From assembly GCA_016699425.1 (NCBI GenBank), contig CP064975.1:258979-322978 (forward strand): a stretch of 64,000 nt of DNA, given 5' to 3'. Both the position numbers and the translations under genes were made by a program. Source of the stretch: Candidatus Moraniibacteriota bacterium (GTDB taxonomy: Bacteria > Patescibacteriota > Minisyncoccia > Moranbacterales > UBA1568). The notes under the pieces were generated by a model that saw only the letters and a program-made list of their open reading frames with translations, was not told the origin of the DNA and ran no database searches. Shown one piece after another: positions 2,307 through 59,782 of the stretch (within the stretch, counting starts at the first letter, position 1; every line of letters begins with the position of its first letter).

Positions 2307-2987
2307 TTGCAGGAGGTTCAAATGCCCTTGTTGTTGCTTTTTGTTCTTTACACGATTATTGGATTCCTTGGGTTGGCCTCCTGGACATCGGCTATGGCTG
2401 AGCCGCTACCCTTTCCCGACACCACTGCCCCGACGGGCCGGGGCCTCGTGCTCCGGGCTACTATCCCGCACCAGCAGCCATCAGGTCTTGATCCGTCGTA
2501 CAGGGCGATGGTGCGGGCGATTACCCTCAGTCGAAATGGCTTTGGTTTGAGCCAAGAGCCGCGCGACGTCTTGGGGTCGCCGCAAGCACCGATGATGGGC
2601 CAGTTGGAGCAGGATACTTCGCCAGCATGGGCGAAATCCCGGTCGTCTATCGGAGCCGCATTTCAGAGCGGACCTTGGACGGTCGCTGTTGAGTACCAGC
2701 AGGGGAAGAACCGACAGCCATTCATCGACCGCGGGTATTTCAGGAGTAGCGGGAAGGTATTCGCTGGTCTACAGTACCAGTTTGACAAGTCCACCTCGGT
2801 GTACATGGGGGTCTCGAGCAGTTTCTCAGCGGGTCTCCGCTGGGTAGGAAAGGAGGGTGATGAAGCCGCCCTTACCTTTGCTGGGTCTCCCAATGGGGAG
2901 ATGCGGAAATTGTTCTCTGGTTCGTCACCGGAGAATCTCCGAAATGTCATCACACTGACCTATCGGATACCACTTGGTCCGTGGTAG
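2307..2987 (+). CDS. Hypothetical secreted protein
   Basis: Long ORF with an N-terminal hydrophobic signal/TM (MPLLLLFVLYTIIGFLGLASW). No recognisable domain. Confidence 0.45.
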   Translation: MQEVQMPLLLLFVLYTIIGFLGLASWTSAMAEPLPFPDTTAPTGRGLVLRATIPHQQPSGLDPSYRAMVRAITLSRNGFGLSQEPRDVLGSPQAPMMGQLEQDTSPAWAKSRSSIGAAFQSGPWTVAVEYQQGKNRQPFIDRGYFRSSGKVFAGLQYQFDKSTSVYMGVSSSFSAGLRWVGKEGDEAALTFAGSPNGEMRKLFSGSSPENLRNVITLTYRIPLGPW

Positions 2988-3345
2988 GAGAGAACGGAAA
3001 GGATTTTAGGGTCACTACTCTGACCTGCCGAATGCCCCTCGCCACGCTTGGCAGAGGGGTTATTTCTTGGTAAGCGAGCAGTACCTTTCCTGTGGTGCAG
3101 CCAAAAGAAACCTTTCTCGCTCGTCCCTGTTTTCAAGTTTTTGAGACGCTTCGAAAGCCTCAGAGAGGTGCTATACTTGAGGCGTTATTGAACTTTTCAA
3201 TGGGGCAGAAAGTGTTCCAAATCAAAAAATATGAACATTGTAAACGCTGATAAGAGCCCTGACAGAAGAAGCATTTTTTAAACGATTATAAGTAAATAAA
3301 ACTACGGAAAAGCTTGAAACAGGGCCAGAAAGATTTGGGCGAAAT

Positions 3346-4122
3346 GTGGTCGTAACGGATCACTATCTACGACATGCAGAAAAAGGCAAGGGGCGCATGG
3401 GCGGCGACCTCAGCGCTGCAGGAGAAGGAGCCGCTGCTGCTGTGGGCCACACCCTCTCCGAACAGGATGTTATTAAAGCCTATACGGGCACCGTGCCGCG
3501 CACGAAAGATACAGCTCAATTAATTGTGGGGGCGTCACCAACGGAAAGGAAGCTCGTCCCTCGTATCCGCCAGTCTTTGGATGGGTTTGCTGGCTTCTTC
3601 GTTGACCCTCAGAAATCTCCTCTCTGGCAAAAACTTCTAGATGATTTGGCTCATATTCCGAGGGACCTTCCTCCTGACGAACAAAAAAAGGAAATTGCCA
3701 GAATCGGCGAAGAATTTACGACTCAATGGATTGCCTTTGAAGATAAACGTCCTGATGAAGGAACCTTGTCTCCACTTGAGGTGGCGTTAAACATGGCTAA
3801 GAGTACCGTCACTCACAGCAAAATGGCAGAGAGGCTGAAGAGTGGCACCAAAAACGAACTTATCAACGTCACGCATGAAGGGATGCTCACGGCAATGCTT
3901 CGCTACTTCCTCAGGCGAAAAAATGAGGACGGAACCTATACAGAAGGTAAAGAACTCTTAGAGAAGCTTGGGCCAGTACAATATCTGGATGATATTATTA
4001 TCCGAACAGCCACTGACGCCCAAGGAAAACGAACGAGTACGGCCACTTTTCGAGGAGAAGAGTATGTAGTGACTGGAGAAGAGCTTCTTGCTCACCATAA
4101 GGATTCACAAACTTCCTCTTAA
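3346..4122 (+). CDS. Histidine phosphatase superfamily-like protein (phosphoglycerate-mutase-like fold)
   Basis: An LRHAEKG motif resembles the RHG catalytic motif, and a later VTHEGML resembles the second His motif. It lies in a low-GC island and is tightly linked (12-nt gap) to the next gene. Confidence 0.4.
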   Translation: MVVTDHYLRHAEKGKGRMGGDLSAAGEGAAAAVGHTLSEQDVIKAYTGTVPRTKDTAQLIVGASPTERKLVPRIRQSLDGFAGFFVDPQKSPLWQKLLDDLAHIPRDLPPDEQKKEIARIGEEFTTQWIAFEDKRPDEGTLSPLEVALNMAKSTVTHSKMAERLKSGTKNELINVTHEGMLTAMLRYFLRRKNEDGTYTEGKELLEKLGPVQYLDDIIIRTATDAQGKRTSTATFRGEEYVVTGEELLAHHKDSQTSS

Positions 4123-4133
4123 GATATCTGAGT

Positions 4134-5450
4134 ATGCTTCCGGTTGAACAATACCGTAAAACCGTCCGCCGACCATACCCACCCCTGCAGAGTTTTCTTT
4201 TTTTAAAAGGTTTTGCAAAAGCTGATTACTATAAACCTTTTTTTAATGAACCATATGCTCTCACGGAAATAATAGTGACTGGTGATGCCTGGTACTGCTC
4301 TGACCAGCAGCTTGATCACATCGGAGAGCTCACCATGAAAGCTTGGGACACGCCGGAAGGTCTCGCAAAAGTAAAAGAGTTATTTTTTGAACGCGAAAGA
4401 AAACTCCTCGCGACAAAAGACCTTGTGAGTTTTGGTTTGGCCTTTGAAGAATATCAGCCGGCCGTACTGATGATTTCTTACTCTGAGAAAACACTGGATA
4501 TTCACCTTAGGACTTTATTGAAAGAAAAAATTAACCACGTCAAAGTGGAGCAAATCATGAGCGATCTAAATAGCCCCCTGGAGGATAACTTTTATAAAAA
4601 AGAGGAGTTGGATCTCGTCACCTCCTTGAACCTTTCTCATCACGTGAAAAAGTATGCTGGTTTGAATGCTAGATATGGTTCCGAAAAAGTATATACCTTA
4701 GATGAGGCCCAAAAACGTCTCCAAGGTCTTGATAAGAAAAAGTGGATTAAAAACTATCACAGAGAAAAAGAGGAACTTAAGAAAAGAATTTTGGAAATCA
4801 AATTACTCTTGGGTAATGCGGATGCTCATTGGGTAGATGTAGTCCAGTACAGCGTGTATTACCGGACGCAAAGGGCAGACGTGCTCCATTTGTCTACTTT
4901 TAATATGCTTGGCGAATTGAAAAAAGAAGCTAAAAGAGCCAACCTTTCTTATCCTGAAATTTTACAGTGTTCCGTGGACGAAATTATCAACCGTCGCCTT
5001 CCTTCGAGGACGGAGATAAGAAACCGTCAACGAGCTAATGGTTTCGTATTAGAGAAAGGGCAGATCCAGATTGTCACAGGAAAAGAGTACGAGAGAATAC
5101 GCGACTACTTTCCGACAAGTATCAAAGAGAGGAGACTCCTGACGGGGAACACTGCTTATAAAGGACAGGTGAAGGGACCAGTCTGCGTCGTATACTCACT
5201 TCAGGATTACGAGAAGTTTCGAGAGGGCGATGTTTTGGTAGCCGCCATGACTACGCCGGATATGGTCCCTTTAGTAAAAATGGCTTCGGCTGTTGTCACG
5301 GATGAAGGAGGAATTACTTGTCATGCCGCTATTATTGCCCGCGAACTTAAAAAACCTTGTATCATCGGTACCAAAGACGCTACGGCGATTCTGAAGGATA
5401 CTATGGTCGTAGAAGTGGATGCTACGGCGGGTACGGTAAGAGTTCTTTAA
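4134..5450 (+). CDS. Protein with a C-terminal PEP-utilising-enzyme mobile (phospho-His swivel) domain and an unrecognised ~350-aa N-terminal region
   Basis: The C-terminus reads TTPDMVPLVKMASAVVTDEGGITCHAAIIARELKKPCIIGT, matching the phosphohistidine domain of PpsA/PPDK/rifampin phosphotransferase. No ATP-grasp or PEP-binding TIM barrel is recognisable upstream. Confidence 0.6.
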   Translation: MLPVEQYRKTVRRPYPPLQSFLFLKGFAKADYYKPFFNEPYALTEIIVTGDAWYCSDQQLDHIGELTMKAWDTPEGLAKVKELFFERERKLLATKDLVSFGLAFEEYQPAVLMISYSEKTLDIHLRTLLKEKINHVKVEQIMSDLNSPLEDNFYKKEELDLVTSLNLSHHVKKYAGLNARYGSEKVYTLDEAQKRLQGLDKKKWIKNYHREKEELKKRILEIKLLLGNADAHWVDVVQYSVYYRTQRADVLHLSTFNMLGELKKEAKRANLSYPEILQCSVDEIINRRLPSRTEIRNRQRANGFVLEKGQIQIVTGKEYERIRDYFPTSIKERRLLTGNTAYKGQVKGPVCVVYSLQDYEKFREGDVLVAAMTTPDMVPLVKMASAVVTDEGGITCHAAIIARELKKPCIIGTKDATAILKDTMVVEVDATAGTVRVL

Positions 5451-5484
5451 CACACCCCCTTCTTGTACAAGTTGTTTCATAAAT

Positions 5485-6114
5485 TTATTTCTGATTCTGC
5501 AAAGCCAGCTTAATACCAAACGCAACAAGAGCCACTCCCATTATTTTAGAGAGGTAGTACTGCACCTTCGAAAACTTATTACGGACAAGGGGTGCAGAAA
5601 TAATAAATGCAAGGAGAGAAAACCAGATTCCTACAATAAAAGCAATTTCTATGCCGTACATTCCCTGTACAATCAGTGGTGTTTTTACATCAATGACTTG
5701 AGTGAAAATGCTCAGAAAAAAGAGAGTGGCTTTTGGATTGAGAGCATTTGTGATAAAACCTTCTTTTAGAGCTTGAGATAGAGAGATGTTCCCATCTCCT
5801 TTTTCTACGGAAATCTCTTTGAAACTTTCTTTTTTTGTTCTTACCAATTGAATACCAAGATACAATAAGTAAGCAGCTCCAACATATTTAATGATAGAAA
5901 ATAGAATAATGGACTGAGAAATAATAAGGCCAATCCCCAAAAGTGAATAAGCTACATGTACGAGTATCCCTAGCCCTACACCTAAGGCTGTCATGAGTCC
6001 AATCTTACGGGCATTCAGACTGTTCTTTGCTACCACAATAAAGTCTGGCCCTGGGCTTACAGCAGCCAAAAAGGCGATAATTCCTATTGTAATAGCTGGG
6101 AAAAAATACTCCAT
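5485..6114 (-). CDS. LysE/RhtB family amino-acid exporter
   Basis: 209 aa with six TM helices. The N-terminal IGIIAFLAAVSPGPDF motif is typical of LysE-type translocators. The gene is AT-rich relative to the core. Confidence 0.75.
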   Translation of the reverse strand: MEYFFPAITIGIIAFLAAVSPGPDFIVVAKNSLNARKIGLMTALGVGLGILVHVAYSLLGIGLIISQSIILFSIIKYVGAAYLLYLGIQLVRTKKESFKEISVEKGDGNISLSQALKEGFITNALNPKATLFFLSIFTQVIDVKTPLIVQGMYGIEIAFIVGIWFSLLAFIISAPLVRNKFSKVQYYLSKIMGVALVAFGIKLALQNQK

Positions 6115-6288
6115 ATATTACATATTTTAACATAAACTAAAAAACATCTTCCAGTGGCTTTAAATTGATTTTGCCCTACAAAGCATAGAGGTCATCCAAT
6201 ATAGAAACTTCTTGATAAAAGTCCTGAACCCCTGATTTTCCTTTTAGATAAAACAAAAACAGCCTCCGAAGAGACTGATTTCTTTCCT

Positions 6289-6472
6289 TGGCGGGGACGG
6301 CAGGACTCGGTCAGAGATAATTTACTCGCCGTCGCATATGAATTTTCCCGACCCTGACTCACGGCCTCGTCTACTGACTCGGCAGCGTTCCGTCTTTCTC
6401 ATCCCGACGGAAACCAAGCCCGCCTGCAACGGTGTAGCACTTCGGGCAGGCAGTTGGTTTCCTCTCGCCCCC
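6289..6472 (-). ncRNA. Putative ~185-nt structured small RNA with tRNA-Asp-like terminal segments, bounded by intrinsic terminators
   Basis: The minus-strand unit starts GGGGGCGAGAGGAAACC and ends GAGTCCTGCCGTCCCCGCCA, which are the same acceptor-strand sequences as tRNA-Asp. There is no T-arm. The interior has extended pairing (GGAAACCAA...TTGGTTTCC). Hairpin+T-run terminators sit immediately upstream (6484-6518) and downstream (6251-6277). Confidence 0.3.
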
Positions 6473-6483
6473 ACTATAGAACA

Positions 6484-6518
6484 AAAATCTCTCCCCCAAC
6501 AGGAGGAGAGATTTTGTT
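6484..6518. terminator. Bidirectional rho-independent terminator hairpin
   Basis: AAAAATCTCTCCCCCAACAGGAGGAGAGATTTTGTT has a perfect 8-bp GC-rich stem with T-runs on both strands. Confidence 0.6.
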
Positions 6519-6623
6519 ATGGCGGGGACGGCGGGACTTACCCCTCCGGGGCATAAACTTCTCGTCCCACCATCGTACCAAAAAATCAAAAACCCGACCG
6601 TAAAGGACGGGCTTTTGATTTTG

Positions 6624-6697
6624 CGGGGACGGCGGGACTCGAACCCGTGACCTTCTGCGTGACAGGCAGACGCTCTAACCAGCTGAGCTACGCCCCC
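6624..6697 (-). tRNA. tRNA-Asp (GTC)
   Basis: GGGGGCGTAGCTCAGCTGGTTAGAGCGTCTGCCTGTCACGCAGAAGGTCACGGGTTCGAGTCCCGCCGTCCCCG folds as a cloverleaf with anticodon loop CTGTCAC and discriminator G. It closely resembles E. coli tRNA-Asp. CCA is not encoded. Confidence 0.85.
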
Positions 6698-6862
6698 ATT
6701 TTCTGAACTCACGACCTACAACCGACAACTCACAACGAGAAGAAATGTATTAAAGCATCGCTCACCGTTGTTGGTTGTTCGTGCTGGGTTATCAGTTTTT
6801 TTGGTACCAGGGGCGAGATTCGAACTCGCGACCCCGGGCTTACTCGCCCCGTACCGAAACAG

Positions 6863-6935
6863 TAGCAGGGGTGGGGATCGAACCCACGACATCAGGCTTA
6901 TGAGTCCTGTGCTCTACCAACTGAGCTACCCTGCC
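6863..6935 (-). tRNA. tRNA with CAT anticodon (elongator Met or Ile2/lysidine type)
   Basis: GGCAGGGTAGCTCAGTTGGTAGAGCACAGGACTCATAAGCCTGATGTCGTGGGTTCGATCCCCACCCCTGCTA forms a standard cloverleaf with anticodon loop CTCATAA and a G1-U72 wobble. Confidence 0.75.
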
Positions 6936-7159
6936 GGAAATGTTTTGGTACGGGGCGAATCCCGCTGCTCCCTGCCTGCCGGCAGGCAGGTAACCAACTG
7001 AGCCCCGCCCGCATGATTCGCTTGCTCATCAAGCGTATCGGGCGGGTACCCTGGCGAGGTTTATACGATGAAACCCTGACCGCGTCGCAAGGCACGGAAA
7101 TAAAGCGAGGAGCGGGGAAGATGCCACAGTATCTGTCACCTGCTGATGGCTATATTTGT

Positions 7160-7233
7160 TGCGGGGGGTGGATTTGAACCACCGACCTCTTGGTTATGAG
7201 CCAAGCGAGCTGCCAGACTGCTCTACCCCGCTG
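7160..7233 (-). tRNA. Initiator tRNA-fMet (CAT)
   Basis: AGCGGGGTAGAGCAGTCTGGCAGCTCGCTTGGCTCATAACCAAGAGGTCGGTGGTTCAAATCCACCCCCCGCAA is near-identical in layout to E. coli tRNA-fMet. Position 1 is unpaired against A72 and the T-loop is TTCAAAT. Confidence 0.8.
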
Positions 7234-7496
7234 TATATGATCTCTAGGAACTTCCGACCACCCTTTAAACTTTTGAGATAGTTTTCCCTCTTTCGCGCTT
7301 CGGTGTAACTCGCATAGTCTTCTTTGTGAACGAGTACCCATTGTTGGTGTCTCTTGGTCCACTGGGAGCGACCCTGATTGTGAGCAGTAATCCTCTCCGT
7401 AACGTCAGCGGAGATACCGATGTACCTGCGCCCATTTTCGGATTGTATTACATAAACGCTGAACGGTAAACTCGTGTCGAGCATAGGGAGTCTCAT
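7194..7496 (-). CDS. Small GIY-YIG nuclease (YhbQ/UPF0213-like) inserted at tRNA-fMet
   Basis: MRLPMLDTSLPFSVYVIQSENGRRYIGISADVTERITAHNQGRSQWTKRH...TEARKRENYLKS carries the GIY..YIG and conserved Arg/Glu motifs. The start ATG lies in a CTCATGAG anticodon-loop mimic of a degenerate tRNA-fMet 5'-half copy (7513-7537). The stop TAA is the TAA of the CTCATAA anticodon loop of the intact tRNA-fMet. The track ORF 7194..7673 is an artefactual upstream extension. Confidence 0.7.
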   Translation of the reverse strand: MRLPMLDTSLPFSVYVIQSENGRRYIGISADVTERITAHNQGRSQWTKRHQQWVLVHKEDYASYTEARKRENYLKSLKGGRKFLEIIYSGVEQSGSSLGS

Positions 7497-7637
7497 GAGC
7501 CAATCCCGCCCGGGCGGGACAGACTGCTCTACCCCGCTGTATATTTGAGAACCTATAACCCACCACCCACAACCTACGACGAGACCTACTTTCTTCTTGC
7601 TGTCGGTTGTTAGTCGTGAGTTGTCGGTTATCTCAAG

Positions 7638-7711
7638 TGGGTGATCATGGACTCGAACCATGGACCTCGACATTATCAGTGTCGCGCTCTAACCACCTGA
7701 GCTAATCACCC
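7638..7711 (-). tRNA. tRNA-Ile (GAT)
   Basis: GGGTGATTAGCTCAGGTGGTTAGAGCGCGACACTGATAATGTCGAGGTCCATGGTTCGAGTCCATGATCACCCA folds as a cloverleaf with anticodon loop CTGATAA. Confidence 0.85.
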
Positions 7712-7880
7712 GCTATTGGATGATCTACTCCTCCTGATCGAGTAACAGACATAGGCGATCGCTAGACCACTGGCCTGTCACACTGGGGGGAGAAGCGTAT
7801 CACCCATTGAAAAGCACCCTGAATCCTACAATATCTCTCCAAAACAATCAAGCTGAAACGGGATAACTCATACATGAATG

Positions 7881-7956
7881 TGGTGGACCGTGCCGGATTC
7901 GAACCGGCGACCTCCGCGTTGCAAACGCGGCGCTCTACCAACTAAGCTAACGGCCC
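7881..7956 (-). tRNA. tRNA-Ala (TGC)
   Basis: GGGCCGTTAGCTTAGTTGGTAGAGCGCCGCGTTTGCAACGCGGAGGTCGCCGGTTCGAATCCGGCACGGTCCACCA has the G3-U70 Ala identity pair, anticodon loop TTTGCAA and an encoded CCA. Confidence 0.9.
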
Positions 7957-11473: not shown

Positions 11474-13534
11474 ATGTCAACCTTCGTGCTTACATCCGAT
11501 TGGCCGCCCGCTGGGGACCAGCCCAAAGCGATTGCTTCACTCGTCGCTGGTCTTAAACGTGGGGATGATTTCCAGACGCTTTTCGGCGTGACCGGATCGG
11601 GGAAGACGTTCACTATGGCAAATGCGATTGCACAGATTGGCCGCCCGACACTCGTCATCGCGCACAATAAAACACTCGCTGCCCAGCTCGCCCAGGAGTT
11701 CGAAGAGTTTTTCCCCGATGCGGCGGTGCATTACTTTGTCTCGTACTATGACTACTACCAGCCCGAGGCGTACATGCCGATCACGGATACGTATATTGAG
11801 AAGGACGCTTCGATCAATGAAGAGATCGACCGCTTGCGCCACGCGTCGACACAGTCACTCCTGACTCGTCGTGACGTCATTATCGTCGCCAGTGTCTCCT
11901 GTATTTACGGCCTCGGGAGTCCGGAAGAATATCTGCACGAGAACATCCTCCTGACCGTAGGTGAAGTTATCACCCGTGAAACACTCCTTCGTCGGCTTAT
12001 CGCGATTTTCTTCGAGCGTACCAATGCTGACATCACGCCGGGCCACTTCCGTTCCATCGGCAATCGCATCGAGGTGATGCCGGTATCCGAGAAGTTTATC
12101 TATTCTATTGAGCTGGGTGCCAATCGGATTGAGTCGATCACACAGATTGATCCCGTTTCACAGACGATTCTCCGAGAGGAGGAAGCGATCACTCTTTTTC
12201 CGACCAAACACTTCATCACGGATGCTGACAAGAAGGAGCAGGCCTTGCTCACGATCCGAGAGGAGCTCACGACGCAACTCGGCATATTTGCGGCGGAGGG
12301 GAAACTGCTTGAGGCCGAACGGTTGAAGCGCCGGACGCACTATGATATCGCCATGATCGATGAGATCGGCTACTGTTCGGGGATCGAGAACTATTCGCGG
12401 CACCTCTCTGGCAAGGCACCGGGTGAGCCACCCGAGACCTTGCTCTCGTACTTCCCGCACCTTCCTGATGGCACGCCGGACTTCCTCACCATCATCGATG
12501 AGTCGCATGTGACGCTGCCGCAGCTTCGCGGTATGTACAATGGTGACCAGGCGCGCAAGAAGACGCTCGTCAACTTTGGTTTCCGATTACCGAGTGCTCT
12601 CGACAATAGGCCACTTCGGTATGAAGAATTCCAGGAACGGGTGGGCTCCATCGTCTTCACCTCGGCAACCCCAGCCGATTACGAGCGCGAAGTGAGTACT
12701 CAGATTGTCGAGCAGGTGATCCGACCGACGGGTCTCTTGGACCCTGAAGTCACGGTCCGCGGCATCCGAGCGATTGGCGAATACCCGGGGCAGATCGGGG
12801 ACTTCATCCGCGAGACGGAGATGGAGGTGAAGCGTGGCGGCCGAGTGATCGCGACGACCCTGACGAAAAAAATGGCTGAGGATCTCGCCCAGTACCTGAA
12901 AGACCCTTCGACACGCTCAGGGCAGGGAAAGCCAATCAAAGCCGAATACCTCCACAGTGACGTGCTCACCATCGATCGGATCAAGATCTTGACCCAGTTC
13001 CGGAAGGGCGAGTTCGATGTCCTGGTCGGTGTGAACTTGCTCCGCGAAGGACTTGATCTTCCCGAGGTGACCTTTATTGGCATCCTCGATGCGGATAAGG
13101 AGGGGTTTCTCCGTTCCGAAACCTCGCTCATCCAGATTATCGGCCGCGCCGCGCGCAATGTCCTTGGCCGTGTCATCCTCTATGCTGACCGGGTGACGGG
13201 TTCGATCGACTATGCCCTGAGCGAGACGGCTCGTCGCCGGGCCTTGCAACTGGCGTACAATACCGAGCACAGTATCACGCCGCAGACGATAAAGAAGAAC
13301 ATTCATGATATCACGGAGCGGCTGCAGAGCGAGCACGATCAGGCGGTAGCCGTATCGCTCGCGCTCGATGCCAAAGGTTTTGCCAAGGATCCAGAAAAAA
13401 TCATCCGAGCGAAGGAACGCGAGATGAAAGCGGCCGTGAAGCTTCTCGATTTCGAGACCGCGGCCATCCTGCGCGATGAGATCCGGGCGCTCGAGAAACG
13501 TCTCGGCCGAAGGAATAAGGAGACTCGGAAATGA
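11474..13534 (+). CDS. uvrB: Excinuclease ABC subunit B
   Basis: GVTGSGKTFTMANAIAQIGRPTLVIAHNKTLAAQLAQEF, YYDYYQPEAY, helicase motifs and a C-terminal UVR domain are present across ~686 aa. Confidence 0.95.
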   Translation: MSTFVLTSDWPPAGDQPKAIASLVAGLKRGDDFQTLFGVTGSGKTFTMANAIAQIGRPTLVIAHNKTLAAQLAQEFEEFFPDAAVHYFVSYYDYYQPEAYMPITDTYIEKDASINEEIDRLRHASTQSLLTRRDVIIVASVSCIYGLGSPEEYLHENILLTVGEVITRETLLRRLIAIFFERTNADITPGHFRSIGNRIEVMPVSEKFIYSIELGANRIESITQIDPVSQTILREEEAITLFPTKHFITDADKKEQALLTIREELTTQLGIFAAEGKLLEAERLKRRTHYDIAMIDEIGYCSGIENYSRHLSGKAPGEPPETLLSYFPHLPDGTPDFLTIIDESHVTLPQLRGMYNGDQARKKTLVNFGFRLPSALDNRPLRYEEFQERVGSIVFTSATPADYEREVSTQIVEQVIRPTGLLDPEVTVRGIRAIGEYPGQIGDFIRETEMEVKRGGRVIATTLTKKMAEDLAQYLKDPSTRSGQGKPIKAEYLHSDVLTIDRIKILTQFRKGEFDVLVGVNLLREGLDLPEVTFIGILDADKEGFLRSETSLIQIIGRAARNVLGRVILYADRVTGSIDYALSETARRRALQLAYNTEHSITPQTIKKNIHDITERLQSEHDQAVAVSLALDAKGFAKDPEKIIRAKEREMKAAVKLLDFETAAILRDEIRALEKRLGRRNKETRK

Positions 13535-13604
13535 TATACTAGAGCCACGATGCGTCTGGAAAAGCCCGACTCACGTAATATCAGCGTAAGCTTACACAAA
13601 CAAT

Positions 13605-13913
13605 ATGTTGATACCCAGAAAAATGCTCGGCTTCGGGTTTGCACTGTTTCTCATGCTTGTCATACTGGCTGTGATCTATTCCCAGTATGCCCTGCAGAGC
13701 CAGCCAAATCTGTCTGACACGGTCCAGCCCAAGTCGACGATGAACGCTGGGAAGAAGTCCGCTCCGACTGTGGATATCGCGACCACTCCGCTCCCGACGA
13801 CCGTTACACCGGAAACGGCGGCGAATGATCTCATCGACGAAGCGCTCGCCGACCGCGATGACCTCTCCGCTTCAGAGGAAGACGAGATGGCTGATCTCGA
13901 AAACGGTAATTAA
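13605..13913 (+). CDS. Hypothetical membrane-anchored acidic protein
   Basis: An N-terminal TM helix is followed by an acidic tail. Confidence 0.35.
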   Translation: MLIPRKMLGFGFALFLMLVILAVIYSQYALQSQPNLSDTVQPKSTMNAGKKSAPTVDIATTPLPTTVTPETAANDLIDEALADRDDLSASEEDEMADLENGN

Positions 13914-25413: not shown

Positions 25414-25721
25414 AAAGAAAAGAACCCCGTAAGGACAGGACCTTAAAGGGCGCTTTTCGTCGTAATTCTACTAGAAGAGTAGCGCCGACGAAGTGCTTTG
25501 TCAAGGGCGGAAAAGTGCAAAGAGGTGGCTTTTTCTCATCTCTAACCAACTCATCCCACGCCCTCGTTTTTGTGGCTTGCCACGGAGCCCGGTTTCGGTG
25601 GTAGCGTGGCTTGAAAATGGGGTAAAAGCTTGCCCTGTTAGATTTGCGTTATCTCATAGGGGAGAGTAGGGTGATTCCTCGGGCTTTGGTATACAATGGA
25701 AAGGCTTGAATAAGGATATTT

Positions 25722-26804
25722 TTGACTATGGAAAAGAAGTCCTCGAATACGAATTTGAATAAGGCAAGCAAGGCAAAGAAAGATGAGTTTTATACTCAGC
25801 TTGTTGATATTGAAAAAGAGCTCAAGCACTGCAAAGATCAGTTTCGTGGCAAAGGGGTTTATTGTAATTGTGATGATCCTTTTGAAAGTAACTTCTTCAA
25901 GTATTTTGCAACCAACTTCAATGCACTTGGATTAAAGAAACTTATTGCTACTAGCTATAAGCCGTCCCCCATAGCTAATACGCAACTAAATCTATTTGGT
26001 GATATTACAGTACTATCTACGCCAAAAGGTCGTCCTAAGATAACCGCCAACAAATTCATTATCAATGAAGTTGATGATATAGATGGAGATGGTGCATTTG
26101 ATTTGCGTGATATTGCCGAACAGCTCAAGGCTAATAAAAACAATGAATGGGCGCCATTAAAGGGAGAGGGAGACTTTAGAAGTAAAGAAAGTATAGAGTT
26201 GCTAAAGCAGGCTGACATCGTGGTGACAAATCCGCCGTTCTCTCTATTTCGGGAATATGTTGCACAGTTGATGGAGCATAGCAAGAAATTTCTTATTCTC
26301 GGAAACCAGAACGCCATAATTTATAAGGAAATTTTCAAGTTCATAAAGGAGAACAAAATGTGGCTTGGGTATGACAATGGTGGAACGAAGTGGTTTCAAG
26401 TCCCAACCGATTACAACATACCAACAGAATCAAGAATAAAAACCGAAAACGGAATAAAGTACTTCAGCATGGGAAGTATAGTGTGGTTTACAAACATGGA
26501 TACAACTAAACGCCATGAGGAGCTGACTTTATATAAAAAATATTCATCAGAAGAGTACCAAAAATACGATAATTATGATGCAATTGAGGTACCAAGGTTT
26601 CTTGATATTCCGATGGATCACGATGGTGTAATGGGTGTGCCGATTACTTTTCTTGATCGGTATAACCCGGAACAATTTGAAATTGTTGGATCAAATCGAG
26701 GCATAGACCAAGACTCGAATAAAATATATGGCCGAGGATCTTTTTTGAATGGTAAAGAAACCTTCAAGCGACTTTTTATAAAAAATAGAATGGCAAAAAA
26801 GTAA
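25722..26804 (+). CDS. N6-adenine DNA methyltransferase (NPPF motif)
   Basis: DIVVTNPPF catalytic motif IV, an N-terminal DEFYTQ region, and low GC. Confidence 0.75.
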   Translation: MTMEKKSSNTNLNKASKAKKDEFYTQLVDIEKELKHCKDQFRGKGVYCNCDDPFESNFFKYFATNFNALGLKKLIATSYKPSPIANTQLNLFGDITVLSTPKGRPKITANKFIINEVDDIDGDGAFDLRDIAEQLKANKNNEWAPLKGEGDFRSKESIELLKQADIVVTNPPFSLFREYVAQLMEHSKKFLILGNQNAIIYKEIFKFIKENKMWLGYDNGGTKWFQVPTDYNIPTESRIKTENGIKYFSMGSIVWFTNMDTTKRHEELTLYKKYSSEEYQKYDNYDAIEVPRFLDIPMDHDGVMGVPITFLDRYNPEQFEIVGSNRGIDQDSNKIYGRGSFLNGKETFKRLFIKNRMAKK

Positions 26805-26805
26805 T

Positions 26806-27909
26806 ATGAAAATCGAACTAAACAGAATTCCGGTTCGTGAAGTGGTTACGGGCTACAAAGATAGTGCCGAGGAGGGCGTTGTTGCCTATGAGGGTAAGCT
26901 TGATGTGCGACCGAAGTACCAGCGTGAATTTGTTTACAAAGATAAGCAGCGCAATGCGGTAATTGATACTGTCCGAAAGGGATTTCCCCTTAATGTGATG
27001 TATTGGGTAAAGACCGACGAGGGAAATTTTGAAGTGCTCGATGGGCAACAAAGAACAATAAGTTTAGGTCAATATGTAAACGGTGATTTCTCTGTGGATT
27101 TTAATGGTCGCCTTGCTATGTTCCATAATCTCACCAAAGAGGAACAGGAGCAGATTCTGAACTACGAACTGATGATTTATTTCTGTGAGGGGACAGATAA
27201 AGAAAAGCTGGATTGGTTCAAGATCATAAATATTGCTGGTGAAAAGCTGACCGATCAAGAGTTGCGTAACGCTGTTTATACCGGTTCTTGGCTTTCAGAT
27301 GCAAAACTCAAATTCAGTAAATCAAACTGTGCCGCATACCTTTTGGCCAATGATGGCGGCTCACTAGTAAATGGTTCGCCAATTCGGCAAGAGTATTTGG
27401 AGACCGCTCTTCTATGGATTAGTAACGGCGAGATTGAGGATTATATGGCCAAACACCAGCACGACGAGAACGCTGAAGAGTTGTGGCAATATTTTCAAAA
27501 TGTCATTGCCTGGGCACATAAAATTTTCACCAAATATCGCAAAGAGATGAAGGGGGTTGAGTGGGGCAGGTTGTACAATAGGTATAAAGATACCGCTTAC
27601 GATTCTCGAGAGATTGAGGAGAAAACACTGGAACTTATCAATGATGATGAAGTTCAGAGTTTAAAAGGCATCTACGAATATATTTTGACGGGCGAAGATA
27701 AACATCTAAATCTTCGTCAATTTGAGGATAAGACAAGAAGAAAAGCTTACGAAAAACAAAAAGGCAAATGTGTTTGGTGTAAAAAAACTTTTGAATTTGA
27801 AGAAATGGAAGCCGACCACATTACCCCCTGGCACGAGGGTGGCAAAACAACTGCGGAAAATTGCCAAATGCTCTGCAAGCAAGATAACCGAACGAAATCA
27901 GGAAAATAG
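26806..27909 (+). CDS. DUF262 (ParB-like, DGQQR motif) plus C-terminal HNH nuclease protein; putative restriction or modification-dependent nuclease
   Basis: VLDGQQRT motif near the N-terminus. C-terminus CVWCKK...ADHITPWHEGGKTTAENCQMLCKQDN is an HNH motif. The start is 2 nt after the methyltransferase stop, so the genes are translationally coupled. Confidence 0.7.
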   Translation: MKIELNRIPVREVVTGYKDSAEEGVVAYEGKLDVRPKYQREFVYKDKQRNAVIDTVRKGFPLNVMYWVKTDEGNFEVLDGQQRTISLGQYVNGDFSVDFNGRLAMFHNLTKEEQEQILNYELMIYFCEGTDKEKLDWFKIINIAGEKLTDQELRNAVYTGSWLSDAKLKFSKSNCAAYLLANDGGSLVNGSPIRQEYLETALLWISNGEIEDYMAKHQHDENAEELWQYFQNVIAWAHKIFTKYRKEMKGVEWGRLYNRYKDTAYDSREIEEKTLELINDDEVQSLKGIYEYILTGEDKHLNLRQFEDKTRRKAYEKQKGKCVWCKKTFEFEEMEADHITPWHEGGKTTAENCQMLCKQDNRTKSGK

Positions 27910-28100
27910 ACCGCCGTGGGGATTTTCAATGAAGAGAAGCAAATTTAAACTTGCCTTTTTCTTTTATTTGTGGCAGTGTGAGAGTATAGAGTAAAAAATA
28001 AAAACCACTCCAAACACAGAAGATCGGAAAGAGTCATAATCCCCAATGCGATTATACCACCACCCCGGACTTCCGGGGTGGTTTTGTTTCATTGTAAGTT

Positions 28101-29285
28101 ATGTGGGTAAAGACATCAGGAGTAAGCGCAGTTGAGATTGACGATGATGTTTTTCGAACAATTCTCAGCTTTTATCCGGAAGAAAAATTGCATGAGTCAG
28201 AATTCTTTCAGAGCTGTTTTAGTCATGGCTCTGTAAGCTATACATTGTTGCGCGCAGAGTCAAATAAAATATTTCTGCCTTGGCAGCTATTCTTCCTGAA
28301 TAAAAAGAATCTCAAGAAGCAGCTCAAGCATATAAATGAACAACGCGAAGACAGGTTGTCTGCGGCCTTTTTTACAAAAAGAAAAGGCTCAGGAGAACAT
28401 ATGTCCAGAAGGATAGTGGATAGACTCATTCGTCTTCAGGGGTTTGTTGTTTCAAAAAAGAAATATCAAAAGAATAGTTTTTGTAATTCGCTTAATTCAT
28501 TAAGCCCAACCGATGCAGCCAATTCTCTCATTGAATACTTCGGGGTTGATCTAGTGGAATTCAGAGGCAAGAAGACAAAGCGAGAAGCACTCGAGTATTT
28601 AATTAAAAAAATAGGAGCAGGACAGATTAATGTGTCTCGGGGAGTAAGAGTCTTGCTTCCTATTTATCAACAAATCGACAAGATATACAAAAACACCAGT
28701 GGATTCGCCCTAAAGGATGACTGCCTGCCTTTTATATTTTTACCAGGAGATATAAATCCTGAAGAGGCTACAGGAAGGCAAATATATAGTCTGTTTTATC
28801 TTCTGGCTTCCATTGGGATAAATGACTATAGCTTTTTTATAGATCAAGATCTTGAAGTTCAGGTAGTAGGCGCAAAAAATCTTGAGAAATGGAAGCATGA
28901 TCTGGTTTCATGCATCATATTGCCAACAGACTCGTTGACTACAATACCGACTAGTCTGGACGATATTATGAAGATGAGCGACAAATATAAGGTAACTCCA
29001 ACAGCTGTCATTGTTGTTCTTAGGGCTCGGGGCATCATTAATAGTGCACTCTTCGACTTCTTAAAGAGTGAATTAAACCTATCTGTAAAAACCTTTCAAC
29101 AAGGATGGTCCGCAAAAATCTCTACTTCTGTAAAAAAATTTTGTGGTCAAGAAGCTTCTGCCGCCATAAATATGCTTATCCGGGGCGGAAAACTGAAATC
29201 AATCACAGCCCAGTATCTTATCTTTGGCCGGGTGAATAAAAGTCAGTATAAGAAATATTTTTCTCAGATACAGAACACTGTATGA
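28101..29285 (+). CDS. Hypothetical protein (394 aa), partner of the downstream PIN-like protein
   Basis: Low-GC ORF with a 4-nt overlap with the next gene. No confidently recognised motif. Confidence 0.4.
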   Translation: MWVKTSGVSAVEIDDDVFRTILSFYPEEKLHESEFFQSCFSHGSVSYTLLRAESNKIFLPWQLFFLNKKNLKKQLKHINEQREDRLSAAFFTKRKGSGEHMSRRIVDRLIRLQGFVVSKKKYQKNSFCNSLNSLSPTDAANSLIEYFGVDLVEFRGKKTKREALEYLIKKIGAGQINVSRGVRVLLPIYQQIDKIYKNTSGFALKDDCLPFIFLPGDINPEEATGRQIYSLFYLLASIGINDYSFFIDQDLEVQVVGAKNLEKWKHDLVSCIILPTDSLTTIPTSLDDIMKMSDKYKVTPTAVIVVLRARGIINSALFDFLKSELNLSVKTFQQGWSAKISTSVKKFCGQEASAAINMLIRGGKLKSITAQYLIFGRVNKSQYKKYFSQIQNTV

Positions 29286-29713
29286 AAGTGATAGATACAA
29301 ATTTTATTATTAACGCATATCGCGAAGAAGTTCTCTTGAAGAACGAATACTTTGCTGCACCCGATGTGTTAGAGGAGCTAAAGATTGATCCAGGCATTAA
29401 AATTCCAAGTAATGTGAAGGACGGAAGAGGGGGTATTTTTTTCAGTATGCCAGTCTATCTAGGGAACTATAGCTACTTTTTGAATAAGTACTGCCCCTCA
29501 TTTTATAATATGACTAGTTTTGGAGACATCTCTACCTTAGCCTTCATAAGAACAGTTCTTGAGAATATCAAAAGACAAGCGACGCTGCCTACGATGGAAG
29601 AAAATATTATTTTGTTTGCAGACGATGAGAAACTCTCGAAGAGGGTGATAAAAGAGTTTTCTAGCGAAGTCAAGATTATTAAATTTGCTAATTCGGAAAA
29701 GAATCTTTTATAG
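29282..29713 (+). CDS. PIN-like domain protein (possibly DUF4411-type)
   Basis: MKVIDTNFII N-terminal strand with a conserved Asp. Further acidic residues (VLEEL, LFADDE) are consistent with a PIN fold. Confidence 0.4.
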   Translation: MKVIDTNFIINAYREEVLLKNEYFAAPDVLEELKIDPGIKIPSNVKDGRGGIFFSMPVYLGNYSYFLNKYCPSFYNMTSFGDISTLAFIRTVLENIKRQATLPTMEENIILFADDEKLSKRVIKEFSSEVKIIKFANSEKNLL

Positions 29714-57646: not shown

Positions 57647-58333
57647 GTGAGAACCTGGTATACTTTGTTTATAATGATGACTCTGGATAACAAAACTACC
57701 TTTGCAGTAATCGCCATGCTCATAAACGCAGGGTGTTTTATTAATTACGTACGAAGTATCCTGCAACATAAAACGAAACCACATGCTTACACTTGGCTTA
57801 TCTGGTGTATCACACAAGGAACGGCTGTAGCAGCTATCTGGTATGGGAATGGCGGTTGGGGAGCTTGGGCATTGATAGTATCCACAATCTTTGTTGCTCT
57901 TGTATTTTTACTTTCTCTTCGGTACGGAACACGAAACATAACCAGGAGCGATACCGCTATTCTTTTCTTCGCCCTGCTTGCAATTGTCGTATGGTGGCAA
58001 TTAGATAACCCATATCTCGCCGTGGCTATGGTTTCCATCATTGATGTTATTGGGTATATCCCTAGTTGGCGGAAATCTATTAGCGCTCCCTGGTCTGAAG
58101 CAGTGTCATCGTGGATAGCTTCCCCAGTTGGGTATATCTTTGCCATGCTTGCGCTGATGGAATACAATTTTCTCACCCTTACCTACCCCGTATTACTTGT
58201 GCTGGCGAACCTTATCCTAGTAACGATTTGTCTTTACTACAGAAGAACAATTCCTAAGCCACTACCAATAGGCTCTAAATATTGTCTGTCGGATGGGATA
58301 ACTAAAAAGAGCCTTACAAAAGCCTCTTTTTAG
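57647..58333 (+). CDS. Hypothetical multi-TM membrane protein (island gene 1)
   Basis: About seven hydrophobic helices in a low-GC region. Confidence 0.45.
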   Translation: MRTWYTLFIMMTLDNKTTFAVIAMLINAGCFINYVRSILQHKTKPHAYTWLIWCITQGTAVAAIWYGNGGWGAWALIVSTIFVALVFLLSLRYGTRNITRSDTAILFFALLAIVVWWQLDNPYLAVAMVSIIDVIGYIPSWRKSISAPWSEAVSSWIASPVGYIFAMLALMEYNFLTLTYPVLLVLANLILVTICLYYRRTIPKPLPIGSKYCLSDGITKKSLTKASF

Positions 58334-58393
58334 TGCTCGTAAAGTACGCGTGCTATATTGAGTATGTATTTATGAAGAGACAAACTTAGCCAT

Positions 58394-59755
58394 ATGTCGA
58401 TTGAATCGAAGTTTTATGCTGTTCCGGATGAATCCAGGATACCTTCAGGAAAAAAAGATAAGGTGATGACTGAGGTGGATAGGTTGCAAGGGACATTAGA
58501 AAGGCTATTTCCCATGCCATGCAAATACGGTGCATGTGGGGTTGGGGAGTACTCGGGGGTGACTATAATGGACCGCTTGATCGACACGGAAGAGACCAGA
58601 ATAGGAAAAGCCCCCACGGACAAGGCAAAAGAACAGCTTACAGGCGTTGCTAACAGAGCTGTGGAAAATAATAACCCGCTTGCTTTGGTTGGAATTTATG
58701 GAACGCCCAGAAGTTTAGATCGACCGGAATTAAATGTTGCTCAGCTTGCGGATTTGTCAGCTATTATGATGGTGCAGGCAGCCATGGATCGGATTCATTC
58801 AGCTCATTCTCCGGGAGTGAGCTATAGGGCTGTTGATGAAGATCTTACCGCTCTCTGGTTAGATATAGCACAGCACCCACTAGGAAAGGAGGGCGGGGAA
58901 AAATTTAAGTCCATTTACAGCAAATACTATAAGGATAGGAAGCGGCTCATTGATTTACTTGAGCAAAAAGGATTAATTAATGTTGGTAAAACCAAGATTG
59001 AGTTGCTTTCGGAGAGTGATCTATATAAGGGTTCATTGGAAAAAAAAGGAGATAGTATGTCTGCGGAAGAGTCTTTTTTAGGGAAGTGTGAGACAGTGAG
59101 GCCGCACATCCTTAATTACTTGACTGCAAGTGGAGAAATAATGGATAAACTTTATGGGGAAGATGACAAGCAATGGGTAAGCGCGGAGGATGATCCTCAG
59201 CTTTGGAGTAGGTATCAACTTTTGATTAGCGAAACAAAGGAGTGTAAGGACCTTCTGAACACGGGATGGCAGGGTCTTATCCCTCCAGAAATGAGGAAAT
59301 ATTATCTAGAGAAGTTTAGATGTATATTAGGCGGGGCTGACTTACGGGCCAGTGACCCGAAACTTCTTTTTCATGTAGCGACGTATCTTTCTTCTACCCT
59401 AGTAAAATTCCAAGCGGGAACTTTAACAGAGGGGATCCCTGCAGGCACTCCTGTTATTCGAGTACCTCTTGTACGACCAGTTGATGGCAGACCCTCTTCA
59501 CATCAGTCTTTGGTCCCCTTGAGGACGTTACCAAAAGTGAAGGGCGATATGGATAAAAGAGTTAGCCACTCTAATAGGGCTGCTTGGTTAAGTGTTGCGG
59601 TCCAGGGCAACAAGAAATTGAGGCTAGTAGATACGGCCGAGTACGCGGAACTTCCGGAGGAGTTAGTAGTTCCCGTACAAATTTACATGGTTGCACCCGA
59701 TAACGGGGCAGGGTCGTATCTCGTAGATACGGCTATCATGTTGTCCGATTCATAG
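58394..59755 (+). CDS. Hypothetical protein, 453 aa (island gene 2)
   Basis: Long low-GC ORF with no recognised motif. Confidence 0.45.
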   Translation: MSIESKFYAVPDESRIPSGKKDKVMTEVDRLQGTLERLFPMPCKYGACGVGEYSGVTIMDRLIDTEETRIGKAPTDKAKEQLTGVANRAVENNNPLALVGIYGTPRSLDRPELNVAQLADLSAIMMVQAAMDRIHSAHSPGVSYRAVDEDLTALWLDIAQHPLGKEGGEKFKSIYSKYYKDRKRLIDLLEQKGLINVGKTKIELLSESDLYKGSLEKKGDSMSAEESFLGKCETVRPHILNYLTASGEIMDKLYGEDDKQWVSAEDDPQLWSRYQLLISETKECKDLLNTGWQGLIPPEMRKYYLEKFRCILGGADLRASDPKLLFHVATYLSSTLVKFQAGTLTEGIPAGTPVIRVPLVRPVDGRPSSHQSLVPLRTLPKVKGDMDKRVSHSNRAAWLSVAVQGNKKLRLVDTAEYAELPEELVVPVQIYMVAPDNGAGSYLVDTAIMLSDS

Positions 59756-59782
59756 TAACTCGAATATCATTCGGAAAGAGTT

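Follow-up and report, generated by a model that had tools for sequence, protein, structure and literature searches.

A histidine phosphatase gene paired with a swivel-domain gene in Candidatus Moraniibacteriota, a minimal form of a gene array of CPR bacteria and DPANN archaea

The locus and its composition

The window, i.e. the whole 64-kb stretch of Candidatus Moraniibacteriota DNA analysed here, contains near its left end two genes on the forward strand. Gene A (3346-4122, 258 aa, GTG start) encodes a histidine phosphatase superfamily protein into which a helical cap is inserted. Gene B (4134-5450, 438 aa) encodes an RPH-like helical domain followed by a swivel domain, without ATP-grasp. A LysE/RhtB-family exporter gene (5485-6114, reverse strand, 209 aa) is convergent with B and is a neighbour only. 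Five tRNA genes follow on the reverse strand (6623-7956). All three ORFs lie where a preliminary description of this DNA had located them and its sequence observations are confirmed overall, except that the gap between A and B, given as 12 nt, measures 11 nt (4123-4133, from the A stop codon to the B ATG).

The region is AT-rich and adjoins the tRNA cluster, as had been described: GC content over 3100-6280 is 0.425, compared with a window value of 0.527 (sd of 1-kb windows 0.053). The LysE gene has the lowest GC3 of the 50 genes of the window (0.335; gene mean 0.597, sd 0.107), and the values of B and A are 0.434 and 0.453. Other low-GC patches occur at 25.5-29.5 kb and 57.5-58.5 kb. A scan for promoters and terminators returned matches at chance level. 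What the window carries is a single isolated module and its phosphatase partner, in a patch of atypical composition.

Domains and folds of the two proteins

The C-terminal part of B is a phosphohistidine swivel domain, as the preliminary description had stated. The Pfam PEP-utilizers profile (PF00391) matches residues 362-433 (5217-5432, forward strand) with 87.6 bits (cut-off 23.1; E 4e-25), and His397 (codon 5322-5324) lies in TDEGGITCH, which includes the motif GGITCH. B contains DEGGITCHAAIIARELKKPCIIGT. Thr395, two residues before His397, is conserved in at least 90% of the B family. The domain aligns with the swivels of PEP synthase (8a8e) and RPH (5fbs). The reported lack of an ATP-grasp and of a PEP/pyruvate module is borne out by Pfam and NCBIfam searches, which find neither PPDK_N nor PEP-utilizers_C in B.

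The N-terminal helical domain (4134-5123, forward strand; residues 1-330) would provide the acceptor-substrate site. It is not unrecognisable. No Pfam or NCBIfam profile matches residues 1 to about 208, and the nearest NCBIfam alignments, both weak, start at residue 209 (Rph) and 262 (RedH), but the predicted fold matches the rifampin-binding domain of RPH. With the AF2 model of B (pLDDT 93.8), the only full-length Foldseek matches are the RPH-Lm structures 5fbu, 5fbs and 5hv1 (E 3e-12, TMq 0.54), and all remaining matches are confined to the swivel. TM-scores are moderate (0.5-0.6) for A and B alike. A profile alignment of B to RPH reaches B residue 283. With RPH as its sole full-length structural match, B is probably the part of a split small-molecule dikinase that binds the substrate and carries the phosphate.

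B is full length and has retained each of the 26 positions invariant among 58 aligned homologues. Ten N-terminal residues are invariant in its subfamily (R13, R180, Y187, Q238, R244, T245, R247, D249, E283 and R298), and just two of these, E283 and R298, remain conserved in every module. B is 100% identical to the NCBI entry 'hypothetical protein IPJ68_01215' of Candidatus Moraniibacteriota. Its architecture recurs in more than 100 full-length homologues of about 440 aa, and some homologues carry the JGI label 'phosphoenolpyruvate synthase/pyruvate phosphate dikinase'.

The assignment of A to the histidine phosphatases holds: His_Phos_1 scores 35.9 bits (curated cut-off 21.7), the PF00300 match being well aligned only over residues 14-75. 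Of the two motifs described previously, VTHEG is present (residues 175-179), while the first reads RHA (residues 9-11) and not RHG in the window copy, as it does in several A relatives. The catalytic residues are R9, H10 (codon 3373-3375), R52 and H177 (codon 3874-3876, all on the forward strand). In an alignment of 40 family members the first three never vary, and H177 is conserved to at least 90%. The helical cap, of approximately 85 residues, is inserted at about residues 80-165.

The AF2 model of A (pLDDT 95.1) has the alpha/beta fold of the superfamily. A Foldseek search against the PDB gives 239 matches at E <=1e-3, including MINPP, TIGAR, PhoE, PspA and RosC (E from 3e-8); the best 50 of the 239 all belong to the histidine phosphatase superfamily. 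Its closest structural neighbours, MINPP, PhoE, PspA and RosC among them, are phosphatases of small molecules; identity to solved structures is 9-17%. A shares the fold and the R-H-R-H core with the branch-1 histidine phosphatases (PhoE/YhfR, PspA, CobC, RosC, GpgP) and with the cap-bearing MINPP. However, it belongs to a small separate family, for which an exhaustive HMMER search recovered 113 clusters among 1.84 billion representatives; a word-based homologue search with A found no relatives. The family has its own features: an N-terminal GxNV motif, the helical cap and, at the C terminus, a beta-sheet that ends in FRGxEY. Of 112 members, five carry a membrane anchor of two helices and none is fused to a module.

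The 5' end of gene A is unusual. The in-frame stretch upstream of the GTG (3292-3345, forward strand) encodes VNKTTEKLETGPERFGRNV, corresponding to the N-terminal motif of the family (ME...FGRNV). It contains no ATG, GTG or TTG, and a TAA precedes it (3289-3291). Codon 3304-3306 is ACG where A relatives have ATG. From the sequence, the ancestral start codon appears to have been lost and A may therefore be truncated or decaying. The alternative GTG start keeps the first strand of the fold.

Related loci in CPR and DPANN genomes

The B family is large and found in Patescibacteria (CPR) and DPANN archaea, where its members usually form tandem arrays. The 81 related loci include 322 swivel domains, and runs of at least two module or loader genes occur in 56 of them. 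Arrays reach 12 module genes per 21 kb, and many CPR/DPANN genomes devote 10-20 kb to them. An ATP-grasp domain (PPDK_N) is adjacent or fused to modules in 33 loci. Sixteen genes encode PPDK_N fused to between one and eight modules; examples are a 3761-aa ORF composed of an ATP-grasp and eight modules (L029) and a 1027-aa PPDK_N-module fusion directly upstream of a B orthologue (L002). PPDK_N also accompanies B-family modules in L090 and L091. Across CPR the stand-alone ATP-grasp proteins share 65-70% identity; within one array, modules share about 24% in their N-domains and 50-58% in their swivels.

The 64-kb window contains neither a PPDK_N gene, next to B or elsewhere, nor a second module. 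None of the best 120 ATP-grasp homologues, retrieved with a stand-alone query from Moraniibacteriota, derives from the 1,217,328-bp contig of the window. B orthologues lacking an ATP-grasp within 10 kb are also found in four other loci (L006, L008, L009, L088). Genes for flavokinase and riboflavin functions recur near the arrays and represent one lead to substrates. We found no description of such module arrays in the literature; one paper mentions rph-like matches in CPR in passing.

The association between A and B is not a matter of chance, in agreement with the linkage proposed previously: genes of the A family are found immediately beside those of the B family in independent lineages and in both search directions. 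Members of the A family adjoin modules in three loci (L023, L044, L075), and in L090 an A-family gene directly follows the B orthologue, with PPDK_N two genes downstream. In the reverse direction, a scan with a 10-sequence subset of the A family (the 40-sequence alignment being too diverse) yielded six loci, and an A-like gene adjoins modules in 5/5 informative loci retrieved via A alone. Of 17 His_Phos-like genes, 15 adjoin modules, against a background of 24.5% (hypergeometric P 4e-8). The closest B homologue (L001) is followed by a member of a related group of His_Phos-like proteins of about 300 aa (hhalign probability 99% with A). L090 and L001 together suggest that the A family may follow a single module subfamily, for instance the B type. 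Many diverged modules are usually accompanied by one A-like gene. Proteins of about 170 aa with a 'THG' motif located by arrays are weakly related to A (hhalign probability 75%) and were left out of these counts. The link between A and B is supported, and far from being an isolated oddity the A-B pair represents, in minimal form, a gene array that is widespread in CPR/DPANN.

A possible split dikinase with a phosphatase partner

Precedents for two-component dikinases are HpeHI of Rhodococcus, CreHI of Corynebacterium and the phenylphosphate synthase PpsAB of Thauera/Aromatoleum (PMC12167813). B corresponds to their HpeH/CreH/PpsA component: both combine an RPH-like substrate domain and a C-terminal swivel in one chain without ATP-grasp, and B has Cys-His at the catalytic His, as HpeH does. 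In these systems as in the B family, the ATP-grasp forms a polypeptide of its own, about 310-370 aa long. However, B (438 aa) is not a sequence ortholog of these components, judging from its length and from the PRK08296-type (HpeH-like) NCBIfam models: HpeH is about 71 kDa, HpeH, CreH and PpsA measure about 600-640 aa and are about 45% mutually identical, and the models align with residues 318-438 of B only (60-83 bits against 578-730). Moreover, HpeHI, CreHI and PpsAB are single pairs in aromatic catabolism, whereas the B family forms arrays and fusions of one to eight modules and, unlike them, has a histidine phosphatase partner. In PpsAB, a CBS-domain protein is the third component.

RPH itself (5FBS, 5FBT, 5FBU, 5HV1) shows the same order of helical substrate domain and swivel as B, and offers the precedent for the His-mediated transfer presumed for both (PMC4844700). 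It differs in that its own chain includes an N-terminal ATP-grasp, and is 13-15% identical to B. An assignment of B as a rifampin phosphotransferase was rejected because the ATP-grasp is absent and the scores are far too low (NF041857, 57.9 bits against 999; NF000283, 39.9 against 1700). PEP synthase (PpsA) and PPDK share with B the swivel, the TxxGGxTxH motif and the Thr at -2, but include an ATP-grasp and a PEP/pyruvate TIM barrel that B lacks and have a different substrate-domain fold (PMC12167813).

Taken together, B is probably the carrier/substrate subunit of a split RPH-type dikinase, with A as a phosphatase of the same system. RPH, PpsAB and HpeHI suggest by analogy that His397 of the swivel would be loaded from ATP by an ATP-grasp protein of the PPDK_N type. 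As no loader is encoded in the 64-kb window, it would have to act in trans in this genome. The swivel domain would then carry the phosphate to a small molecule bound in the helical N-terminal domain of B. We infer this direction of transfer, and likewise the target of A, whose most likely job is the hydrolysis of the phosphorylated product or of a related phospho-metabolite, so that A and B would form a kinase/phosphatase couple.

The histidine phosphatase superfamily includes the protein phosphatases SixA, PGAM5 and Sts-1, and A could instead act on B itself, stripping the swivel His397 (as SixA does on NPr/HPt) or Thr395. In that case A would serve to reset or regulate the carrier, and not to hydrolyse a small-molecule product. 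The tight and recurrent adjacency of A-family genes and modules favours such a role, as does the conservation of Thr395, whose equivalent is a regulatory site in PEP synthase and PPDK (PMC12167813). However, the helical cap, the small-molecule phosphatases found as nearest structures, the usual presence of one A-like gene for many diverged modules and the membrane anchor of some family members all speak against it, and we regard a protein phosphatase acting on B as unlikely.

It is less probable still that the pair is a decaying remnant of a larger array, with a B deprived of its loader, an A deprived of its start codon and no current function. Several observations would agree with decay: B is solitary where most related loci contain runs of modules or loaders, the window has no ATP-grasp, the relatives of A have ATG in place of its ACG, and the composition is atypical. 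Against this, B is full length with every invariant position kept and a confident model, A keeps its four catalytic residues, its GTG start saves the first strand and its model is equally confident (pLDDT 95), and the B orthologues of the four loci mentioned above also lack a nearby ATP-grasp.

The preliminary description had further proposed that A, B and the LysE gene form a cassette, acquired horizontally, which modifies and exports a small molecule, for instance in antibiotic resistance. GC and GC3 are low in all three genes, beside a tRNA cluster, and RPH, the closest solved structure to B, is a resistance enzyme. The exporter is of the LysE type and convergent downstream of B (PF01810, 126.4 bits for a cut-off of 25.6; TIGR00949, 173.2, just below 183.95). 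However, it is an ordinary member of the LysE/RhtB amino-acid exporters that elsewhere is not associated with the A/B system: a LysE homologue occurs in 0/81 related loci. GC3 is also unequal among the three genes, which therefore do not require one common origin. For the horizontal acquisition, the atypical composition stands while integrase and flanking repeats were not seen. No integrase-like ORF occurs at 1-10 kb of the window, and the tRNA-3'-like repeats all lie on one side of the region (6281-6639), none flanking A-B-LysE; those at 6281-6538 have no Rfam match. A tRNA-linked genomic island, which would call for an integrase and flanking direct repeats of a tRNA 3' end, was rejected. Among viral contigs the B family is all but missing (2 partial matches), and its distance from RPH (see above; 58 bits for the Rph model against 999) does not favour a resistance enzyme, a role to which nothing in the analysis points. 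Such a cassette is thus very improbable. The earlier interpretation is partly supported: the domains of A and B and their linkage stand, in contrast to LysE membership and resistance.

Finally, the idea that B is a fragmentary or misannotated PEP synthase or pyruvate phosphate dikinase of central metabolism, suggested by PEP synthases being its best swivel sequence matches and by the JGI names of some homologues, has a negligible probability and is ruled out by domain content, since PEP synthase models align with the swivel alone (residues 320-435; TIGR01418, 118 bits against 740; NF005057, 126 against 598), PPDK_N and the PEP-utilizers_C TIM barrel are missing and the many full-length homologues share the same architecture.

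CPR bacteria and DPANN archaea have tiny genomes. Automatic annotation names the array modules 'PEP synthase', 'pyruvate, water dikinase' or 'hypothetical', and labels of the 'PEP synthase' type can falsely suggest gluconeogenic capacity. The split RPH-type dikinase, in which diverged substrate modules would share one loader and have a conserved phosphatase as partner, provides a concrete biochemical hypothesis for a large unexplained gene block in these symbiotic microbes. In CPR/DPANN genomes, one well-conserved ATP-grasp would serve many anciently diverged B-type modules, each presumably with its own substrate. More tentatively, A and B might be the minimal form of an undescribed modular system that combines this conserved loader and its many diverged modules with dedicated cap-bearing histidine phosphatases, although we hold this to be doubtful. 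If true, such a system might serve to trap or recycle many metabolites scavenged from the host. In this genome A and B could then even function with no loader encoded in cis, perhaps through phosphate exchange between phospho-metabolites, which HpeH has been shown to carry out on its own. PPDK can run in reverse and, operated in the same way, the modular system could harvest ATP from phosphorylated metabolites.

Architecture of the swivel-domain protein

The gene of the swivel-domain protein (B; 4134-5450, plus strand, 438 aa) starts 11 nt past the stop codon of the histidine-phosphatase-like gene (A; 3346-4122, plus strand, 258 aa, GTG start) and converges with a LysE/RhtB-family exporter gene (LysE; 5485-6114, minus strand, 209 aa). 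ORF calls reproduced this layout, already noted in the preliminary description, and Pfam profiles recognized all three of the domains proposed there: PEP-utilizers in B (residues 362-433, E 4e-25), His_Phos_1 in A (35.9 bits for a cut-off of 21.7) and LysE in the exporter (126 bits).

B is 100% identical to a hypothetical protein in NCBI from a Candidatus Moraniibacteriota MAG. Its full-length homologues (about 440 aa, 36-54% identity) number more than 100 and are hosted by Patescibacteria and a Woesearchaeota. Its AlphaFold2 model (pLDDT 93.8, alignment built on 59 homologues) predicts a mostly helical domain (residues 1 to ~330) followed by the swivel domain. The only whole-chain matches in the PDB were structures of rifampin phosphotransferase (RPH; 5fbu, 5fbs, 5fbt and 5hv1), obtained with a single program, Foldseek, at moderate TM-scores (E 3e-12 to 2e-10, TMq 0.52-0.55, ~540 alignment columns). 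PEP synthase, PPDK, pyruvate kinase and Enzyme I matched the swivel domain only. In the family profile, B residues 283-440 aligned collinearly with RPH 711-866. Since RPH is the sole whole-chain structural match, B is predicted to be an RPH devoid of its ATP-grasp domain. The N-terminus, previously described as having no recognizable ATP-grasp or PEP/pyruvate-binding module, indeed carries no ATP-grasp; its modeled fold is RPH-like. The NCBIfam models for PEP synthase, PPDK, Rph, PigC and RedH cover only the C-terminal third of B, far under their cut-offs, and B cannot be classified as RPH or PEP synthase proper by their curated models.

The same architecture is found in HpeH, CreH and PpsA, each of which is one half of a two-component small-molecule dikinase. 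HpeH also matches only RPH over most of its length; these systems need a separate ~40-kDa ATP-grasp protein, and phosphate exchange between product and substrate is possible with HpeH alone (PMC12167813). The RPH mechanism has been described (PMC4844700). By analogy, B probably functions in the manner of these three proteins. Orthology is nevertheless rejected, since B is shorter and, as compared by NCBIfam models, its sequence resembles theirs in the swivel domain only.

The phosphatase family and its association with modules

A word-based search for A relatives returned A alone, and searching 1.84 billion cluster representatives exhaustively recovered 113 (E <= 1e-3), mostly full-length matches of 250-320 aa. 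In a 40-sequence alignment R9, H10 and R52 are invariant, and conservation is 90% or higher at H177, P136, D137, S142, P143 and E145. The AlphaFold2 model (pLDDT 95.1) exhibits a histidine-phosphatase fold with a C-terminal sheet and a helical insertion (residues ~80-165). The Foldseek matches listed for it are all histidine phosphatases with small-molecule substrates (E from 3e-8, TMq 0.45-0.59), namely MINPP, TIGAR, PhoE, phosphoserine phosphatase, RosC and glucosyl-3-phosphoglycerate phosphatase. Conservation of the catalytic residues together with this fold suggests that A is likely a functional phosphatase, in a family that is small and distinct.

The motif conserved at the N-terminus of this family (ME...FGRNV) is encoded in frame 5' of the A GTG start, as TEKLETGPERFGRNV (3289-3348). 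This stretch includes no ATG, GTG or TTG; the ATG of relatives is replaced by ACG at 3304-3306, and a TAA lies at 3289-3291. This could reflect loss of the start codon, an error in sequencing or initiation at a non-canonical codon. Five of 112 family members (P0158, P0180, P0186, P0191 and P0233), and the gene at 12813-13823 of locus L023, carry an N-terminal two-helix anchor, suggesting that some are membrane-tethered.

The linkage between A and B recurs in relatives. Among loci chosen solely for B relatives, full-length A homologues directly abut a module gene (a module being a helical substrate-binding N-domain plus a swivel domain) in L044 (Portnoybacteria), L023 (Pacearchaeota) and L075 (Uhrbacteria). 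In L090 an A-family gene (profile E 4e-44) begins 6 nt downstream of a B orthologue (44% identical) and precedes a short module and a stand-alone ATP-grasp. In L001 the closest B homologue (54%) precedes a ~300-aa protein of a sister group, present in 10 loci and related to the A family (hhalign probability 99%, E 2e-18, 237 columns). Over 81 loci, 15 of 17 His_Phos-like genes adjoin a module or an ATP-grasp gene compared to 24.5% of the remaining genes (hypergeometric P 4e-8). There is some circularity in this figure, since adjacent genes were used to construct one of the two profiles; with only the independent A profile, the count is 5 of 7. Conversely, a search of metagenomes by A-family alignment only returned six loci, and modules adjoin the A-like gene in all five with flanking sequence, accompanied by an ATP-grasp in two. 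No A-module fusion was found among 112 A-family proteins. The recurrent adjacency, combined with the rarity of the A family, constitutes strong evidence from gene neighborhoods for a functional link.

Module arrays and putative ATP-grasp loaders in relatives

The B family profile retrieved 78 loci of relatives in species-representative genomes, and exact protein look-up gave 3; 4 more were added later. Genes were defined by simple ORF calls made for this analysis and array counts derive from iterated HMM searches of the first 81 loci. By their record labels, the loci span many CPR phyla and DPANN groups, with a few TPA assemblies labelled Gammaproteobacteria or Bdellovibrionales. They include 299 module genes and 322 swivel domains (median 3 per locus; maximum 13, by single-sequence search), nearly every one preceded by a homologous helical domain, in uninterrupted runs of up to 8 module or loader genes. 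A PPDK_N ATP-grasp, the putative loader, is present in 33 loci, either as stand-alone proteins (17, ~290-380 aa) or fused to 1-8 modules (16 genes). Three giant uninterrupted ORFs carry one N-terminal ATP-grasp followed by eight (L029, 485-11767, 3761 codons) or five (L076, 900-8726, 2609 codons; L014, 2799-9920, 2374 codons) swivel-containing modules; their hosts are Woesearchaeota, a Patescibacteria MAG and an unclassified archaeon. In L002 a 1027-aa protein composed of an ATP-grasp and two modules (2909-5992) lies directly upstream of the B orthologue. Such fusions are Rosetta-stone evidence that ATP-grasp and modules work together.

Full-text literature searches found no description of tandem arrays of anciently diverged modules, of multi-module fusions or of a dedicated histidine-phosphatase family; one survey mentions rph-like hits in CPR, but only in passing.

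A short module (~340-375 aa, compared to ~440-500 aa) usually adjoins the stand-alone ATP-grasp (L004, L026, L039, L056, L072, L075, L077 and L090), and the two may form the conserved core pair of the system. A stand-alone flavokinase (PF01687) occurs in or near arrays in 8 of 91 loci (~1.4 Mb; L003, L004, L061, L065, L075, L077, L089 and L091), with an EamA transporter in L003 and L089; L091 includes riboflavin and lumazine synthases, and in the window an ApbE gene (158-1279) lies upstream of A. These neighbors may be a lead to a flavin or vitamin-salvage theme, or a coincidence. Arrays are also abutted by other phosphate-handling genes (L002, 7348-7818, minus strand; L035, 8651-9661): a low-molecular-weight phosphotyrosine-phosphatase-like gene adjoins a B orthologue, and PTA_PTB phosphotransacylase-like genes are present in 4 loci. 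TrmB-family regulators are present in 6 loci.

Proposed mechanism, alternatives and genomic setting

Beside the observed domain identities, catalytic residues and gene associations, we infer phosphate loading in this genome, the direction of transfer, the substrate and the target of A. Reasonably probable is a scheme in which an ATP-grasp protein encoded outside the window would load His397, the catalytic histidine of B; the swivel domain would pass this phosphate on to a small-molecule substrate bound by the N-domain; and A would hydrolyze the phosphorylated product or a related phospho-metabolite. An appreciably less likely arrangement is that A dephosphorylates B itself, at His397 or the conserved Thr395. 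Neither a second module nor an ATP-grasp was found within the 64-kb window, an unusual solitary state which, with the apparent loss of the A start codon, could point to a decaying remnant; however, catalytic positions are intact in both proteins and such decay appears unlikely.

The AT-richer composition reported earlier was confirmed (GC 0.425 for 3100-6280, 0.527 for the window). Among 50 genes, GC3 is lowest for LysE (0.335), seventh lowest for B (0.434) and ninth lowest for A (0.453), atypical but not uniform. The contig of the closest B relative has 33.6% GC. Composition makes the suggested horizontal acquisition plausible, and is its basis, but neither an integrase nor repeats bracketing the A-B-LysE region were found; the B family is almost absent from viral contigs. 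LysE, formerly a possible member of the system, has no homologue in the 81 B-family loci and is therefore a neighbor only; that it forms part of a horizontally transferred cassette for resistance and export is very improbable. That B is a PEP synthase or PPDK fragment is refuted by its domain content and hardly conceivable.

Two other patches of atypical composition were observed. The region 25500-29500 (GC ~0.39-0.40, the strongest tetranucleotide outlier of the window) encodes an EcoRI-type adenine methylase (25722-26804), a GmrSD_N+HNH nuclease (26806-27909) and a 394-aa protein without Pfam match (28101-29285), and is likely a restriction/defence island. Low-GC3 genes at 57647-60841 encode 228-aa and 453-aa proteins without Pfam match and a 353-aa class-I glutamine amidotransferase-like protein.

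A cluster of five tRNA genes occupies 6623-7956. Between 6281 and 6639 a sequence resembling a tRNA 3' end, GGCGGGGACGGC(G/A)GGACT, is directly repeated in three copies, of which one is the real tRNA-Asp. The copies at 6281-6307 and 6512-6538 encode the CCA end, each followed by a terminator-like hairpin (minus strand); 6288-6475 (minus strand) has a predicted multi-branch fold (z = -2.2) with an acceptor-like closing stem. No match was obtained at 6281-6538 with ARAGORN or Rfam, and this stretch may correspond to elements derived from tRNAs or to a structured RNA that lacks annotation. A small GIY-YIG nuclease ORF (7194-7673, minus strand, domain residues 72-138) lies between tRNA-Met (7158-7232) and tRNA-Ile (7637-7711); its maximal extent overlaps both, so that the true start is probably internal.

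Paralogues of one array are old: they share ~24% identity in their N-domains, where E283, R298 and partly R247 are the only residues conserved family-wide, and 50-58% in their swivels. Between CPR lineages, the identity of stand-alone ATP-grasp proteins is 65-70%. This pattern fits a shared loader serving substrate modules of differing specificity.
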